A stretch of 24,668 bases of DNA from Promethearchaeota archaeon (GCA_016840165.1 JAEOSU010000007.1:1-24668); one strand, 5' to 3'; shown: positions 8,898 through 20,248, counted from the stretch's first letter. Translations and numbers: made by a program. Notes: generated by a model from the sequence alone, not told the origin.

Positions 8898-10619
8898 ATG
8901 AGAGATATAATCATTAAAAATGGATTAGTTTACGACCCTATTAACGATTTAGACGGCGAGAAAAAAGAAATTCATATAAAAGATGGCAAGATCGTTGATA
9001 AAGTAAATGGGGATGCAAAGATTATCGATGCTTCAGGTATGATCGTTTTACCGGGAGGTGTAGATATTCATTCACATATATCAGGAGCGAAAGTAAATTC
9101 TGGTCGGGCATTTCGACCTGAAGATAAACTCCCAAATTATAATGATAAGAGAACAAAATTGACTCGTTCTGGCACTGGGTATTCGGTTCCCTCAACATGG
9201 TCGACTGGATATAGATATGCAAAATTAGGATATACCACTGTTATAGAACCAGCTATGCCATTATTGGAAGCACGTCATACTCACGAAGAATTTAACGAAA
9301 TGCCAATTATTGATAAAGCTGCGTTTCCTCTCTTAGGAAATAATTGGTTTGTTATGCGATTTATTAAAGATAAAGAATATGATAAGCTTGCGGCTTATGT
9401 TGCGTGGGTATTAAAAGTAACCAAAGGATATGCGGTAAAAATAGTAAATCCAGGAGGCGTTGAAAATTGGTGCTGGGGTAAGAATGTGGATTCTTTAGAC
9501 GATCACGTTCTACATTTTGATGTGACTCCAAGAGAAATTATAGAAGGATTGGCAAAAGCAAATGAAAAGATAGGTTTACCCCACACAATTCATGTCCATT
9601 GTAACAATCTGGGACATCCAGGAAATGTAAAACATACTCTGGCAACTATGGATACTGTAGAAAAAATAAATCCTCAGAATCATAGAGATTCCATAATGCA
9701 CATTACTCACTGTCAATTTAATGCATATGGAGGTACCAATTGGGGTAATTTTGAATCAGCCGCCCCTGAAGTAGTTGAATATTTAAATTCACATAAACAT
9801 ATAACAATAGATGTAGGGCAAGTTATTTTCGGAGAAGCTGCAACTACTACTATGACAGCAGATGGTCCATGGGAATTTGCTCTTCATCATCTCGGTGGAA
9901 TGAGCCCATGGGGTGCAAAACCAGGCGTTAAATGGATTAACGGGCAAGTTGAAGGTGAATCGGGTTCTGGAATCGTACCCTACTTCTTTAGTCCAAAAGT
10001 CGCAGTAAATGCGATCCAATGGGCAATTGGCTTAGAGTTATTATTATTGATGAAGAATAAATATCAAATATTTTTCACCACTGATCATCCGAATGGTGGT
10101 CCATTCACAGCATATCCTAAAGCATTTAGGTGGTTAATGGATAAAAAAACACGGGACGATATCCTCTTAAATCAATGTTCTAACAAAGCTGAAACGCAAA
10201 CACACCTTAAAGATATCGATTATGAGTATTCAATAAGTGACCTATGCATCGTTACTCGAGCGGGGACCGCAAAATGTTTAGGTTTGAAAGATAGAGGCCA
10301 TTTAGGAGTTGGAGCGATTGGAGATGTCTCGATTTTTAAATTAAATCCAGAAAATATGGATGGTCATGCAATTGAAAAGGCATTCACCCAAGCAGCGTAT
10401 ACTATTAAGGATGGCCAAATTGTAGTGAAAGATGGAGAAATTATGGCTTCACCAATGGGTACATTACTCCAAACAGAAGGTAAAGTAAAAGAAGGCGATA
10501 TGGAAGCCATGCTTTCTGAAGTTAAAGCTTATTGGAGAGATCATTATAGTATCAACTTTAACAACTACAGAGTTCAGGACGTTTATGCTCCTAAAGTTAA
10601 AATGGTTAATGGAACCTAA
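8898..10619 (+). CDS. fwdA: Formylmethanofuran dehydrogenase subunit A
   Basis: Amidohydrolase GGVDIHSH, KVNSGR..RPED, ARHTHEE, KIVNPGG, HVHCNNLGHPGN, HITHCQF, MTADGP, QWAIGLEL, TTDHPNGGPF. Confidence 0.97.
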   Translation: MRDIIIKNGLVYDPINDLDGEKKEIHIKDGKIVDKVNGDAKIIDASGMIVLPGGVDIHSHISGAKVNSGRAFRPEDKLPNYNDKRTKLTRSGTGYSVPSTWSTGYRYAKLGYTTVIEPAMPLLEARHTHEEFNEMPIIDKAAFPLLGNNWFVMRFIKDKEYDKLAAYVAWVLKVTKGYAVKIVNPGGVENWCWGKNVDSLDDHVLHFDVTPREIIEGLAKANEKIGLPHTIHVHCNNLGHPGNVKHTLATMDTVEKINPQNHRDSIMHITHCQFNAYGGTNWGNFESAAPEVVEYLNSHKHITIDVGQVIFGEAATTTMTADGPWEFALHHLGGMSPWGAKPGVKWINGQVEGESGSGIVPYFFSPKVAVNAIQWAIGLELLLLMKNKYQIFFTTDHPNGGPFTAYPKAFRWLMDKKTRDDILLNQCSNKAETQTHLKDIDYEYSISDLCIVTRAGTAKCLGLKDRGHLGVGAIGDVSIFKLNPENMDGHAIEKAFTQAAYTIKDGQIVVKDGEIMASPMGTLLQTEGKVKEGDMEAMLSEVKAYWRDHYSINFNNYRVQDVYAPKVKMVNGT

Positions 10620-10650
10620 TTTTTTATCTCTTCTTTTTATATTTTATCTT
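10620..10650 (+). terminator. Possible oligo-T archaeal terminator after fwdA
   Basis: T-rich tract (tttttttatctcttctttttat) directly after the stop codon. Confidence 0.4.
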
Positions 10651-10848
10651 ATAAGATTTTAAGATCAAAAAGCAATATTTTTTAGTTTAATCTACGACCA
10701 TAGCTTAAATTTAGAATGAATCAATAAATTAATACGGGAGATTATCCCTATTCTATTAGACACTTTATTTTCAAATTGATACTAAACTTTATATTTTTTA
10801 ATCTCTTAAGAAGGATTAAGCTTTTCATCATCATATTTATCTAATATC

Positions 10849-11253
10849 ATGCGATTTATTAAAGAAAAAAAAGAGTTTAAGTCTTCACTTGAAGAACTTT
10901 TAAAAAATGTCATGGATGATGTTAAGGAAATTCAAGCTGCTCAAATAACCGCTGATACGGGACAAGCTCTTGCCTCTGCATTGCCGTCTGACGTCGATGA
11001 TATGCGTTTTGCTGCAATAACTGCCGCATTATGTTCTCTTAGTGAGAGAGCTATTTCTGAAATGGGTTTAGGCGAACTGGAACAAGCCTATATTAAAGGA
11101 GATAAAGGATATGTATTAGTACTTCGGGCAGGAGAAGATCAGGTTCTAACCGTCACAACGACCAATAAAATCAAGCTCGCTCCTATCTTATTTAAACATT
11201 ATAAACACTTCGATAATGATGATAATCTTTTAAGTAGTGAAGCTTCTCTTTAA
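10849..11253 (+). CDS. Roadblock/LC7 (MglB-like) domain protein
   Basis: Pattern DTGQALASALP...RFAAITAALCSLSERAISEMGLGELEQAYIKGDKGYVLVLRAG, typical of the roadblock/LC7 fold. Confidence 0.92.
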   Translation: MRFIKEKKEFKSSLEELLKNVMDDVKEIQAAQITADTGQALASALPSDVDDMRFAAITAALCSLSERAISEMGLGELEQAYIKGDKGYVLVLRAGEDQVLTVTTTNKIKLAPILFKHYKHFDNDDNLLSSEASL

Positions 11254-11254
11254 A

Positions 11255-12058
11255 TTACTCTAACCCAATTTCTTTTGGTGTAAGATTATGAAATTGCTGT
11301 ACTTTTGGGAGAGTCATAATCCTATAGAAATGATATTTAAATCTCTGGAGTAAATTCAGTTTTTTTGGATATTCCACTCGATTATTCATAATAGGTTGTT
11401 CTCTGAAATTCTCTGTAAAAAACCCTGACTTATAGAATCGCCTATAATATAAATAGCAGTAAATTAATTTAAGATATTTTCTTTGAAGGGGGGTAACTTG
11501 ACTTTGAAAAGAATTGTAAGCTTTATAAATTATCTTTCTATCTTTCCAATGAACTCGGAAAAAGGTATCCGAATTATAGGTATAAAAATAATATATTTTT
11601 TTTGGTAAATATCTTTCCTCTATTTTTTTTAGTGCAAGGTAAACTAGTCTTCCTGTATTTAGATGATCAGGGTGATGATCAAGAAGATACCAAGGATCAG
11701 GGGCAAAAATAATATCAGGTACATCTTTCTGAATAAGATCTGAGATCTGAATAATTGCTTTTCGATTTATAGGAAGATGACCATCTATATAATCTATAGG
11801 TATTAATTGTGTTTGGTTATCGGTATAATTAGTAAATAATTCAATACTTTTTTTTAACTCGTGAATCCTAATCTTTTTAAGTCGTTTTCCTTTGAAATCA
11901 AGTTCATGAGTACCAAATTCACTATTGGTCATGACGATCTCAACCACATTAAATCCTAAGCTAAGTGCTCTTACATAAAAAAATGGCATACCAAATTCTA
12001 CATCGTCTATATGAGGGGAAAAGATAAATATCGTAGGTTTCTTAATGTTAGGTGTCAT
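11255..12058 (-). CDS. PIG-L/LmbE-family metal-dependent deacetylase
   Basis: SPHIDDVEFG (HxDD), MTNSEFG, RIHE, HPDH motifs. Confidence 0.88.
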   Translation of the reverse strand: MTPNIKKPTIFIFSPHIDDVEFGMPFFYVRALSLGFNVVEIVMTNSEFGTHELDFKGKRLKKIRIHELKKSIELFTNYTDNQTQLIPIDYIDGHLPINRKAIIQISDLIQKDVPDIIFAPDPWYLLDHHPDHLNTGRLVYLALKKIEERYLPKKIYYFYTYNSDTFFRVHWKDRKIIYKAYNSFQSQVTPLQRKYLKLIYCYLYYRRFYKSGFFTENFREQPIMNNRVEYPKKLNLLQRFKYHFYRIMTLPKVQQFHNLTPKEIGLE

Positions 12059-12100: not shown

Positions 12101-13543
12101 CTAAGTAATTTTTTTATCTTTGATATCAATACCTAAGTCTCGTAATTTATCACGAATTTTATCGCTAAGGTCAAATATTTTTCTATTTCTAAGGTCTTCT
12201 CTTGTTTCTTGCAATATCTTAACTAAAACTTCTATAGTTTTCTCGGCCTCCTCAGTATACGCTCCTGAAAACTTAGAAATCCTAGATTCTAAATCGGGAA
12301 AAATTCCAAATAAAGCATCGAGCTCATCGATAAACTTGAAAAAAGTATCTTTAAAATTCCGAGATATTGGCTTTGCTTCTTGAAGAATGATTCTATTTAT
12401 TTCTCTAGATAATGATAAAAGTTCTGCTATTGCTTTAGGAGTATCTAAATCATCATCTAGGAAAGTTAAAATATTGGAACGTGCTGTAGAAATAGCATTT
12501 GCTAAGTTCTTGGTCGCTTGAGTCTCTTCATTTGAAACATTACTTTCATTGATTTGTTTTATTGTGTTAATTAAGCGATTGTATGACTTTTTCGATTGCT
12601 CCATGTTTTCTAAAGAATAATTGATCGAACTTCGATAGTGACTGGTTATTAAAAACCAGCGTACCACCATTGGATCATATTCTTTAATTATTTCGGAAAT
12701 GAGAAAATAATTTCCCAGACTTTTCGACATTTTCTCATCATCCACATTTATAAAACCATTATGAACGAAGTAATGAGCAAAAGGTTTTCCCGTATAAGAT
12801 TCTGATTGAGCAATCTCGTTTCTATGGTGAGGGAATTTAAGATCCTGCCCACCCCCGTGAATATCAATTGTTTCCCCTAGAAAGTTTAAAGCCATAGCCG
12901 AACATTCAATATGCCAACCAGGCCTTCCCTTTCCCCATGGACTTTCCCAATACGGTTCTCCTTTTTTCATCTTTTTCCATAGGGCAAAGTCCCTTGGATC
13001 ATATTTGTCCTGCCCATATGCCGTATCCTGATCTGTCGAATAATCATCTTCCTCGCCAATATCCTCATCTGATACATTCTGCATTATTTGGTGATATTTT
13101 GGAAAAGAATTCACCGCAAAATAGACGGAGCCTCCTTTTTCATATGCATTTCCCTTTTCAATTAGTTTTTCAATGAAATGTATAATAAATGGTATGACTT
13201 CTGTAGCTCGCGGATTTTTCGTATCTTTGAAAATATTTAACACATCCATCATGTCTTCATATTCTTGGATATATTTCTCAGCAATCTTTCGATAATCTTG
13301 ATTTAATTCATTGGAACGTGCGATAATTTTATCATCGATATCAGTATAATTCTTTATTAGCTTTACCTCAAATCCTTTGAATCTAAAATAGCGATGAATA
13401 AGATCCAAAGACACTGCAGATTTCATGTGACCTAGATGGGGGCTTTCATAAACGGTTGGACCACACCAATAAATTTTAACCTCATTTTTCTTAATGGGTT
13501 TAAAATCTTCCTTCTGAAACGTTAAACTATTGTAAATCTGCAT
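12101..13543 (-). CDS. cysS: Cysteine--tRNA ligase
   Basis: CGPTVY, HLGH (HIGH), NYTDIDDKII, DFALWK, GRPGWHIECSAM, DIHGGGQDLKFPHHRNE, KMSKSLGN, DALR-like DDLDTPKA and anticodon-domain SDKIRDKL. Confidence 0.98.
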   Translation of the reverse strand: MQIYNSLTFQKEDFKPIKKNEVKIYWCGPTVYESPHLGHMKSAVSLDLIHRYFRFKGFEVKLIKNYTDIDDKIIARSNELNQDYRKIAEKYIQEYEDMMDVLNIFKDTKNPRATEVIPFIIHFIEKLIEKGNAYEKGGSVYFAVNSFPKYHQIMQNVSDEDIGEEDDYSTDQDTAYGQDKYDPRDFALWKKMKKGEPYWESPWGKGRPGWHIECSAMALNFLGETIDIHGGGQDLKFPHHRNEIAQSESYTGKPFAHYFVHNGFINVDDEKMSKSLGNYFLISEIIKEYDPMVVRWFLITSHYRSSINYSLENMEQSKKSYNRLINTIKQINESNVSNEETQATKNLANAISTARSNILTFLDDDLDTPKAIAELLSLSREINRIILQEAKPISRNFKDTFFKFIDELDALFGIFPDLESRISKFSGAYTEEAEKTIEVLVKILQETREDLRNRKIFDLSDKIRDKLRDLGIDIKDKKIT

Positions 13544-13568: not shown

Positions 13569-13676
13569 AGCCAGTGATGGGATTTGCACCCATGATGGCG
13601 AAGCCAACGGCTCTGCAGGCCGCCTCCTTAACTATTCCCGTCAAACTTATAAAAGCTTAACCTCGGATACACTGGC
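13569..13676 (-). tRNA. tRNA-Cys(GCA) with long variable arm and a predicted 27-nt D-loop intron (13635-13661)
   Basis: Minus strand: acceptor GCCAGTG/CACTGGC with discriminator U; D-stem TCCG/AGGA; anticodon arm GCGGC-CT GCA GA-GCCGT; variable region TGGCTTCGCCATC; T-arm ATGGG-TGCAAAT-CCCAT. No encoded CCA. Intron boundaries are inferred from a helix-bulge fold. Confidence 0.88.
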
Positions 13677-18439: not shown

Positions 18440-19381
18440 TTAAAATTGATAGAGATCGGTTGACAGATAGCGCTCTCCCGTATCACATACAATAAAAACT
18501 ATATTCTCTCCCTCTCCAAATTCTTTAGCTACAACATTTAAAGCAGCCCATGCGTTAGCGCCCGAGCTAATCCCTGCAAATATCCCTTCTAATTCAGCGA
18601 GATTTCGTGCGGTATCAACCGCATCTTGATAGGATACTTGAATAACTTGATCATAAATTTTTGTATTCAGCGTATCTGGAATGAATCCCGCTCCAATACC
18701 TTGAATTTTATGTGGACCTGGTGACCCACCTGAGAGAACAGGAGAATCTTTCGGTTCAACAGCGTAAACTTTTAATCTTTGTCCCACACGATCTTTTAAA
18801 ATCTCCCCAACCCCAGTAATAGTACCACCAGTTCCTACGCCTGCTACAAATGCGTCAACTTGTCCATCGAGGGCATTAAAGATCTCTTTTGCTGTAGTTC
18901 TTCTGTGGATATCGGGATTAGCCTTGTTTTTAAATTGTTGCGGAATAAATATATTATCTTCAACTTGAGCTAGTTCTTCCGCTTTTTCAATAGCTCCTTT
19001 CATTCCCTTTTGCTCGGGTGTTAGCATCACTTCTGCTCCATACGCTTTAAGAATCTGCACACGTTCCACAGTTACGCCATCTGGCATAATTAAAGTCAAT
19101 TTATACCCTTTAGAAGCACAGACCAGAGCAAGTCCAATTCCCGTGTTTCCAGAAGTTGGTTCAATAATTTTGGTTTCAGAATTGATAATGCCTTCCTCTT
19201 CCGCTTTGATTATCATATTCATAGCTATTCTATCCTTTATACTGCCCCCCGGATTGAAATATTCTATTTTTCCAAACAGATTCGGTTTTAAGTCTTTTGA
19301 AAGGCGATTTATTTTCACTAATGGGGTATTTCCTATTGTATCTATAATATCTTTATAATAATTTACCATTTTGCTTACCAT
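18440..19381 (-). CDS. cysK: Cysteine synthase A (O-acetylserine sulfhydrylase)
   Basis: IGNTPLV, NPGGSIKDR (PLP Lys), PTSGNTGIGLA, GVGTGGT, HKIQGIGAGFIP, DTGERYLST. Confidence 0.97.
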   Translation of the reverse strand: MVSKMVNYYKDIIDTIGNTPLVKINRLSKDLKPNLFGKIEYFNPGGSIKDRIAMNMIIKAEEEGIINSETKIIEPTSGNTGIGLALVCASKGYKLTLIMPDGVTVERVQILKAYGAEVMLTPEQKGMKGAIEKAEELAQVEDNIFIPQQFKNKANPDIHRRTTAKEIFNALDGQVDAFVAGVGTGGTITGVGEILKDRVGQRLKVYAVEPKDSPVLSGGSPGPHKIQGIGAGFIPDTLNTKIYDQVIQVSYQDAVDTARNLAELEGIFAGISSGANAWAALNVVAKEFGEGENIVFIVCDTGERYLSTDLYQF

Positions 19382-19402: not shown

Positions 19403-20248
19403 TTAAATTCCACTTCCATACTCTCCGTAATAAATCTCAATATCATCTTGTTTTTTATCTGAAGACTTATTAATTAGATTCTCTAATTCTCTAATCCTTC
19501 GATCTAAGCTAGAGACAGCTAAAGCAACAGGATCTGGTAAGTCGGCATGTCTTAAATCAATTTTCTGGATCTTCTCATCTATTTTTTCAACTATTCTTCC
19601 TGGTACACCCACAACAACACTATTTGGTGGAACATCATTAATTACTACAGAATTAGCACCAACTCTAACATTATCTCCAATCTTAACGGGACCTAAAATT
19701 TTAGCTCCACTTCCCACTACTACATCATTTCCTAGTGTTGGGTGCCTTTTTTCCTGCTTTAAACTAGTACCACCAAGCACCACTCCCGAATATAAGGTGA
19801 CATTATTTCCTATCTCAGCAGTCTCTCCTATCACAAGCCCTGCGCCATGGTCTATAAAGAAATCACTCCCAATAACTGCTCCCGGATGAATATCAATAGC
19901 GGTTAATTCTATTGCAATATCAGAAATGTAGCGTGGGATAAAAGGCATGTTTAATAACCAAAAAAAATGTGCTATTCGATAAAATAAGACTGCTTTAACT
20001 CCAGGATAACTAGATAAAACTTCAATTAAAGAGTGAGCTGCAGGATCTTTTTTTAAGGCGGCATGTATATCAGAAATAAAAAAATCCAAGATCGACTGTA
20101 AATCAGTAATTATCTGCCCATGATTAAGGTCTTGAATTTTAAATTCTAACCTTAAAATACATTCAGCACAATATGGTACATCTTCACTGGTTTTTGTCTT
20201 TAGACTTTTACCGCAATTTAAACACTTAAGAAAGTTATTAAATTCCAT
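19403..20248 (-). CDS. cysE: Serine O-acetyltransferase with N-terminal CxxC-x14-CxxC extension
   Basis: DPAA...SYPG, IDIHPGAVIG, FIDHGAGLVIGET, KRHPTLG, VVVGVPGR hexapeptide repeats; C-terminus YGSGI. Confidence 0.95.
   Translation of the reverse strand: MEFNNFLKCLNCGKSLKTKTSEDVPYCAECILRLEFKIQDLNHGQIITDLQSILDFFISDIHAALKKDPAAHSLIEVLSSYPGVKAVLFYRIAHFFWLLNMPFIPRYISDIAIELTAIDIHPGAVIGSDFFIDHGAGLVIGETAEIGNNVTLYSGVVLGGTSLKQEKRHPTLGNDVVVGSGAKILGPVKIGDNVRVGANSVVINDVPPNSVVVGVPGRIVEKIDEKIQKIDLRHADLPDPVALAVSSLDRRIRELENLINKSSDKKQDDIEIYYGEYGSGI

Follow-up and report, generated by a model that had tools for sequence, protein, structure and literature searches.

The only tRNA-Cys gene of this Promethearchaeota archaeon (genome G000) carries, between its anticodon and T stems, a 13-nt variable arm with a hairpin of its own, and relatives conserve this arm more than chance would produce. 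The gene lies on the minus strand at 13569..13676 of the window, by which we mean the whole 24,668-nucleotide stretch of DNA analysed here. The best explanation, to which we assign a probability of about 0.7, is a single functional tRNA-Cys of class II shape whose arm the SepRS/SepCysS route would exclude or disfavour. An extra variable-arm hairpin is normal only in serine and leucine tRNAs. Reviews class tRNA-Cys as a class I tRNA (PMC4810241).

Gene anatomy, detection and copy number

The gene spans 108 nt, from G1 at 13676 to U73 at 13569, as placed by a covariance model and by hand folding, and all of its parts are read on the minus strand. The 5' exon (nt 1-15, 13662..13676) comprises the acceptor 5' strand GCCAGTG, U8 and A9, the D-stem 5' strand TCCG, and A14 and G15, as delimited by alignment with the intron-less orthologues L010-L023. 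It is followed by a 27-nt intron in the D-loop, between nt 15 and 16 (13635..13661), which is missing from the intron-less orthologues. The 3' exon (nt 16-81, 13569..13634) holds everything from the second part of the D-arm through the anticodon, variable and T arms to the acceptor 3' strand and U73. The first-pass annotation had taken 13569-13634 for the tRNA-Cys; its description of that span and the splice site that it implied are both correct, the 3' exon beginning at 13634, but the span is only the 3' exon of a gene running from 13676 to 13569. Across the splice junction the intron-less orthologues read TCCGAG-TAGTTAAGGAG, which fixes the splice product of the interrupted gene, a mature product of 81 nt. 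CCA is absent from the gene sequence and would thus be added post-transcriptionally.

Archaeal bulge-helix-bulge motifs consist of two 3-nt bulges on opposite strands with a 4-bp helix between them, or of a relaxed bulge-helix-loop, and the introns described with them measure roughly 10 nt upwards. The D-loop insert (13661-13635) fits a bulge-helix-bulge motif: in the predicted precursor fold, TCCG (nt 10-13) pairs with CGGG of the intron, the bulges are AG|G and AA|T, and the inner hairpin has 8 bp. The fold and the intron-less orthologues together suggest that the splicing endonuclease would remove the 27 nt at this site. Introns at 15/16 in relatives have a mean identity of 66%, compared with 95% for the exons, and CGG ahead of the 3' cut is constant in all of them, in contrast to the remainder, which diverges. 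An A/T-rich ATAAAT is found 24-29 nt upstream of the gene, and a gene for an Lrp/AsnC regulator lies just upstream.

In the mature sequence, all four canonical stems are paired. The acceptor stem has 7 bp (GCCAGTG/CACTGGC, with G1-C72), the D-stem is TCC(G)/(A)GGA, the anticodon stem has 5 bp (GCGGC/GCCGT), and the T-arm at 13577..13593 (ATGGG-TGCAAAT-CCCAT) combines a 5-bp stem, ATGGG/CCCAT, with a G at position 55 (13587). The 7-nt anticodon loop CTGCAGA (13618-13612) presents the anticodon GCA at 13614..13616, invariant across orthologues, with U33 and a purine at position 37 (G37, 13613). U73, a universal cysteine identity element (PMC9976931), is invariant in 79/79 orthologues, and 34/36 genomes of the genus have an orthologue of the gene. 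Direct reading bears out the first-pass statements that GCA, U73, G1-C72 and G37 are intact and that a G13.A22 mismatch is present, as well as the description of a standard 7/5 fold: the 7-bp acceptor stem, 5-bp T stem and 5-bp anticodon stem are unlike those of selC* and set the molecule apart from tRNA-Sec-like tRNAs. The mismatch had also been read as a type-II-like geometry; short-loop orthologues have the same G13.A22, so it is uninformative on the arm and is no class II signature here.

ARAGORN and Rfam searches of the window gave no match to the gene, even at E = 10, because of its 27-nt D-loop intron. Intron-less long-arm orthologues are called as tRNA-Cys(gca) by ARAGORN and score 51.7-56.6 bits against the Rfam tRNA model (cut-off 29). 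A custom covariance model (R1), derived from 33 intron-less orthologues, matches the gene over its full length with ends at precisely 13569 and 13676 (81.3 bits, E = 1.4e-17). Over the whole genome (99.7% complete), ARAGORN finds 23 tRNA genes and Rfam gives 27 matches, 20 of them above cut-off; several G000 tRNAs found by R1 have D-loop or T-loop introns, such as tRNA-Leu(CAA) at C49:25945-26047, and standard tools overlook the greater part of the tRNA set. Where genomes are rich in introns, genes of this kind escape the usual tRNA finders.

The gene at 13569-13676 is the sole tRNA-Cys of G000. A second one, whose existence had been left as a question by the first-pass annotation, was found in this 99.7% complete genome neither as a GCA-anticodon tRNA by the R1 model nor in a scan that required a GCA anticodon arm together with matching acceptor and T stems, and a pattern search returned this gene as its single tRNA-Cys match. 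A decaying pseudogene or tRNA-like element with no role in translation would suit a gene that standard finders miss, that has G55 and lacks GG in its D-loop, and that appeared in metatranscriptome runs only as unspliced contigs from relatives. We give that reading practically no credence, however, since this is the sole tRNA-Cys of a near-complete genome, all of its stems are intact and maintained by covariation over >70 species, and its position adjoining cysS is conserved.

Reality and origin of the long variable arm

The variable region occupies 13594..13606, where the minus strand (13606-13594) reads TGGCTTCGCCATC and folds as TGGC-TTC-GCCA followed by TC, sited between the anticodon and T stems as first described. 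With 13 nt, a 4-bp stem and a 3-nt loop, it is a class II-like long arm by the measure of at least 10 nt with a stem-loop of its own. A pattern search of 161 genomes of the class gave exactly one match each in 82 genomes, 48 of which have a variable region of 12-14 nt; three more found later bring the long-arm genomes to 51, which upholds the proposal of a lineage-specific type II tRNA-Cys. A restrictive pattern applied to 239 other genomes of the phylum gave chance matches only, the two most tRNA-like of which were coding sequence.

The arm varies in sequence and keeps its pairing. Its stem is TGCT/AGCA (the commonest), TGCC/GGCA, TGTC/GACA, TGCC/GGTA or TGC/GCA in relatives, TGGC/GCCA occurring in G000 only among the reference genomes searched, and its loop is TTC, TTT, TTTC, ATTA, ATCA, ATCC, ATTC, GCAA or GAAA. 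In a covariation alignment of 29 sequences, 23 of them distinct, the distinct sequences show no unpaired cell in any of the four arm pairs; compensatory changes occur in two of the pairs, and the other two vary only in ways compatible with wobble. The covariation score of the whole structure formed by the anticodon, variable and T arms lies above all 500 shuffles and all slid controls. Comparison across relatives, earlier proposed as a check on the arm, confirms that it is conserved more than by chance, with its stem paired in every sequence, and the compensatory changes that maintain the arm stems indicate that the hairpin itself is under selection. The arm identity of 89%, as against 66% for introns at 15/16, is that of exon-like evolution. 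The G000 arm allele occurs in DNA contigs from studies of soil and marsh, in one contig with a loop variant, and the presence of the same arm in contigs from other studies rules out an assembly artefact. The five-arm cloverleaf of the G000 allele has a free energy of -30.1 kcal/mol, 0.6 kcal/mol above an alternative fold at the minimum (MFE, -30.7), and that of the common long-arm allele is the MFE fold. Two metatranscriptome runs contained only unspliced contigs of relatives, possibly DNA, with the common arm allele, and no joints were seen.

The extra 8 nt could also be a mini-intron removed after transcription, so that the mature tRNA would be an ordinary class I tRNA-Cys. Interruptions are frequent in the tRNA genes that this lineage carries, as the ARAGORN and Rfam counts of 23 and 27 for a 99.7% complete genome illustrate, variable-region insertions in Asgard tRNAs have been reported in a preprint that counts inserts of at least 10 nt only and leaves cysteine unmentioned (10.64898/2026.10.13.758758), and the helix of an intron would suit the hairpin covariation as well. 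Nevertheless, the insert does not fit the bulge-helix-bulge intron motif, with a net length of 7-9 nt, a 3-4-nt hairpin loop, a 2-nt 3' overhang and no bulges, let alone two 3-nt bulges around a 4-bp helix, whereas Asgard intervening sequences are at least 10 nt long with a median of 22-23 nt (10.64898/2026.10.13.758758). The arm is moreover identical across two genera, in an exon-like manner, while true introns at 15/16 diverge to 55-66% identity, and a sequence removed by splicing would have no way of tracking which synthetases a genome has. We therefore consider a mini-intron highly improbable. That the arm is conserved like exon, has no splice motif and correlates with the Sep genes suggests that it is kept in the mature tRNA-Cys, and the 13-nt hairpin would then give the molecule a class II shape on a normal 7/5 fold.

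Judged by sequence, the long-arm tRNA-Cys belongs with ordinary short-loop tRNA-Cys genes as their orthologue. In the sister genome G034, an otherwise near-identical gene has TATTC as its variable loop, so that it differs from that of G000 essentially only in lacking the arm, and the CysRS of G034 is 82.7% identical to that of G000 and groups with it at 100/99 support. The Ser/Leu-derived body that had been offered as an alternative finds no place here, since the gene is an orthologue of short-loop tRNA-Cys and its arm matches no Leu/Ser arm of G000. U73 and GCA place it outside tRNA-Ser and tRNA-Leu; the readable tRNA-Ser of G000 has G73 and its tRNA-Leu has A73, and all of these have normal elbows and different variable arms of 12-15 nt. 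The idea that the arm was copied from another G000 tRNA was rejected for want of a matching arm, only the GGC/GCC stem resembling two tRNA-Leu arms. As a separate observation, contig C80 of G007 has at ~10172-11325 two neighbouring 80-nt tRNA-like genes (L123 and L124), both with T73 and a variable arm of 12 nt (TGCGAAAGCTTC). The anticodon loop is CTTTTAA (UUU) in one and TTTTGGC (UUG) in the other, which makes them tRNAs of class II shape that bear Lys and Gln anticodons.

The elbow is unusual as well. Position 55 of tRNA is near-universally U or pseudouridine. The tRNA-Cys gene has G55 at 13587 in a T-loop TGCAAAT, and A18 and G19 at 13632-13633 (minus strand) in a D-loop AGTAGTTA; the normal-elbow relatives compared (L109-L112) have TTCAA in the T-loop and a D-loop AGTGGCTA with GG. 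By alignment, the tertiary pair G18:U55 has become A18:G55 and G19:C56 is retained. In families f1 and f4, the G55 elbow occurs with either form of the variable region, and all long arms sit on it. Sep-negative genomes whose elbow has the normal U55 have short loops without exception, so the arm is confined to the G55-elbow background. The arm would thus be a lineage-specific insertion into an ordinary orthologue that already bore the A18:G55 elbow.

Charging of the tRNA and the SepRS/SepCysS route

The gene is followed on the same strand, after 25 nt, by the start codon of cysS (12101..13543, minus), which encodes a cysteinyl-tRNA synthetase of 480 aa (PF01406, E = 1.9e-119; TIGR00435, 486 bits against a cut-off of 340). 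The CysRS gene is single-copy in G000 by tblastn, and the tRNA-cysS tandem is kept in 43 related loci, in short and long forms alike. The tRNA-Cys is probably co-transcribed with cysS, and the conserved identity elements and the gene linkage suggest that the adjacent class I CysRS charges it via U73 and GCA. Class I synthetases leave the variable region solvent-facing. Tolerance of the arm by CysRS would fit this rule. No column of the CysRS alignment switches with the arm to the same residue over five contrasts. Residue 163 is Gly, Thr or Ser in long-arm genomes and Asp or Glu in short-loop genomes in three within-genus contrasts, a weak lead among 656 columns. On the same strand, ~5-7 kb from the tRNA-Cys-cysS unit, the window has cysK (18440-19381, minus; TIGR01139, 434.6 bits) and cysE (19403-20248, minus; TIGR01172, 219.6 bits), so free cysteine synthesis is possible in G000. 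A plus-strand block with genes for ArsR, a Rag-like GTPase, a MASE3 kinase and one further ORF lies between the two units, and the window also has Rag-like GTPase and roadblock genes, which point to an Asgard archaeon, probably one of the Lokiarchaeia.

Recruitment of SerRS or LeuRS by the arm, with serylation or dual charging as suggested at first pass and possibly a Ser -> Sep -> Cys conversion in place of SepRS, is a reading to which we attach very little weight. The 13-nt arm is as long as the Leu/Ser arms of G000 (12-15 nt), SerRS does not read the anticodon, and G30-C40, a weak serine determinant in archaea (PMC9976931), is present. Against this, U73 is invariant, while G73 is a strong determinant for archaeal/bacterial-type SerRS and A73 for LeuRS (PMC9976931), and the tRNA-Cys gene is tied to cysS. 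This is also the sole tRNA-Cys, so serylation would miscode every Cys codon. SepCysS, which Sep -> Cys conversion requires, is missing in G000 and in the long-arm Sep-negative genomes. A bypass from SerRS through a kinase to SepCysS was rejected as a replacement for SepRS on the same ground, SepCysS being absent wherever SepRS is absent.

The two Sep genes and the arm are almost mutually exclusive. Full-length SepRS matches (TIGR00470, E ~1e-140) occur in 55 genomes of the class, and outside these the profile gives only a PheRS cross-match of ~1e-19, which is also all that it yields in G000. SepCysS (TIGR02539) is absent from G000 and has the same distribution across the class as SepRS. No Sep gene of either kind is found in 44/51 long-arm genomes, and at least one is carried by 27/29 short-loop genomes with the G55 elbow. 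Many Sep-positive genomes have a second, ordinary tRNA-Cys (acceptor GCCAGAG/CTCTGGC, a GG/TTCAA elbow and a 4-5-nt variable loop). It is carried by G007 and by G034, the closest relative of G000, which thus combines a short loop, SepRS and a second tRNA-Cys; it was not found in G000 or in the typed Sep-negative long-arm genomes of the family. Only this second, ordinary gene was recovered from G026, G122 and G088. One-mismatch pattern matches for it in G103, G104, G142, G143, G107 and G041, and one in G034, were discarded as coding sequence or tRNA-Trp-like. Among Sep-positive genomes >90% complete, a short-loop tRNA-Cys is present wherever any tRNA-Cys is identifiable (G149, 99% complete, yielded none). 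Two genomes typed after the pattern had been seen agree with a two-sided prediction: G101, the only new Sep-positive genome typed for this gene, is short, and G103, the only new Sep-negative genome with the G55 elbow, is long.

The long arm is accompanied by Sep genes in several genomes. In the sister family f4, four genomes have the long arm and both Sep genes; three of them (G041, G043 and G045) also have a second, short-loop tRNA-Cys, and none was found in the fourth (G039, 88% complete). G070 and G094 (72-74% complete) combine the long arm with SepRS, and searches of them revealed no SepCysS and no second tRNA-Cys. Conversely, G024 (99% complete) has a short loop and no Sep genes. G112, with a long-arm tRNA-Cys and no SepCysS, carries part of a SepRS gene at the edge of its contig C13 (4-870; E = 5e-82 over profile positions 3-297), with a TAG in frame; this may be a decaying gene. 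As the sole tRNA-Cys form, the long arm is confined to genomes in which this tRNA need not serve SepRS/SepCysS, whether because the genes are absent or because a second, short-loop tRNA-Cys is present; G039, G070 and G094 remain as exceptions.

Raw genome counts overstate this link, because relatives are not independent. On a CysRS tree of 43 rows, the arm state needs at least five changes. Among five independent pairs that differ in the arm, Sep differs in the same direction in three, in the opposite direction in none and not at all in two (sign test, p = 0.25), a test that is underpowered with three informative pairs. Genus g28 adds perhaps one more contrast, which cannot be placed on the CysRS tree because its long-arm genomes use a different CysRS type, and neighbour-gene synteny in g28 was too variable to serve as a tree marker. 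In the long-arm genomes of this genus (L136-L146, L149) the CysRS is 40-43% identical to that of G000 and does not adjoin the tRNA, and in the short-loop Sep-positive ones it is 63-64% identical and near the tRNA, which suggests that the synthetase was replaced in the long-arm g28 lineage. Identical long alleles (TGCTTTCAGCATC) occur in different genera, as do identical short alleles (TATTC), which argues against simple repeated gain or loss and leaves room for allele exchange. With only three to four phylogenetically independent contrasts, the link between arm and Sep genes is a strong lead, not proof.

A neutral, tolerated insertion, coinciding with Sep loss through shared ancestry and involving no functional incompatibility, is unlikely in our view and still deserves to be weighed seriously. 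It would accommodate the three informative pairs with p = 0.25, the long arm beside SepRS in G070, G094 and family f4, the short loop of G024 in a genome without Sep genes, and the lack of any CysRS residue that changes to the same identity over the contrasts. On the other hand, arm and Sep state pair in the same way in three genera and in the sisters G000 and G034, three of the four f4 exceptions retain a second short-loop tRNA-Cys, the newly typed G101 and G103 fitted the prediction, and compensatory change maintains the arm stems. A class II-shaped tRNA-Cys that the SepRS/SepCysS route disfavours remains our preferred reading. The class II SepRS, or SepCysS, would reject the arm, and gain of the arm would be coupled to loss of the pathway in either order. 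Variable-loop A47 and core features are known to bias SepRS versus CysRS (PMC9976931). A stronger form, in which the arm is an anti-determinant that bars the CysRS-linked tRNA-Cys from SepRS/SepCysS, with gain and loss mechanistically coupled several times in one archaeal family, we hold tentatively, as a real possibility at somewhat under even odds.

Comparison with known systems

A class II-shaped tRNA-Cys would be the sole decoder of Cys codons in ~50 species of one Asgard archaeal family. Asgard archaea are the closest prokaryotic relatives of eukaryotes. The sister species that differ in arm, SepRS, SepCysS and second tRNA-Cys constitute a natural experiment, which opens the questions of how class I and class II synthetases read the same tRNA core and how the ancient phosphoserine route to Cys-tRNA is lost; such pairs may also help in the design of orthogonal SepRS or CysRS systems. 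If the arm is indeed an anti-determinant, an essential tRNA would have been converted naturally and repeatedly from class I to class II shape, driven by which synthetase must read it. The open-access literature that we searched describes no archaeal tRNA-Cys that combines the 7/5 layout with a long arm. What is new here is the apparent near-exclusive relation between the arm and SepRS/SepCysS, as a strong lead.

The canonical archaeal tRNA-Cys, of class I with a 4-5-nt loop, shares with this tRNA the GCA anticodon, U73, G1-C72, G37, the 7/5 layout, G15:C48 and the link to cysS. The tRNA described here differs in having a 13-nt paired arm for a 5-nt loop, A18:G55 for G18:U55 and a D-loop intron. 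The class II tRNA-Ser and tRNA-Leu of G000 resemble it in arm length (12-15 nt), in an arm stem of 3-4 bp, and in a 3-bp D-stem with 13:22 unpaired, but have G73 (Ser) or A73 (Leu), a GG/TTCAA elbow, and other anticodons and arm sequences.

The known long-arm cysteine tRNAs are the bacterial selC* tRNAs, which are extra copies with an 8/4 layout (Mukai et al. 2017, PMC5389517; PMC7609411). They too are cysteine tRNAs with U73, often GCA, and a long variable arm. However, they sometimes have a UCA anticodon, work with dedicated CysRS*/SelB* partners, and have an 8/4 or 9/4 layout with a lengthened anticodon stem, whereas the tRNA of G000 is archaeal, has a 7/5 fold with a 5-bp anticodon stem, and is the sole tRNA-Cys. 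Nematode nev-tRNAs and eukaryotic non-canonical V-arm tRNAs (PMC3333845) likewise combine a class II shape with a non-Leu/Ser anticodon. Both are extra eukaryotic genes, charged with leucine and competing with normal tRNAs, in contrast to a sole cognate tRNA of its codon family that keeps its cysteine identity elements.

The dual CysRS/SepRS system of Methanosarcina mazei, in which core and variable-loop features bias SepRS versus CysRS and isoacceptor preference is found (PMC9976931), compares with the SepRS-keeping relatives of G000, which often have two distinct tRNA-Cys genes. That account of Methanosarcina mazei describes no long arm, while here the whole arm would discriminate, in a genome that has lost both the Sep route and the second tRNA-Cys.
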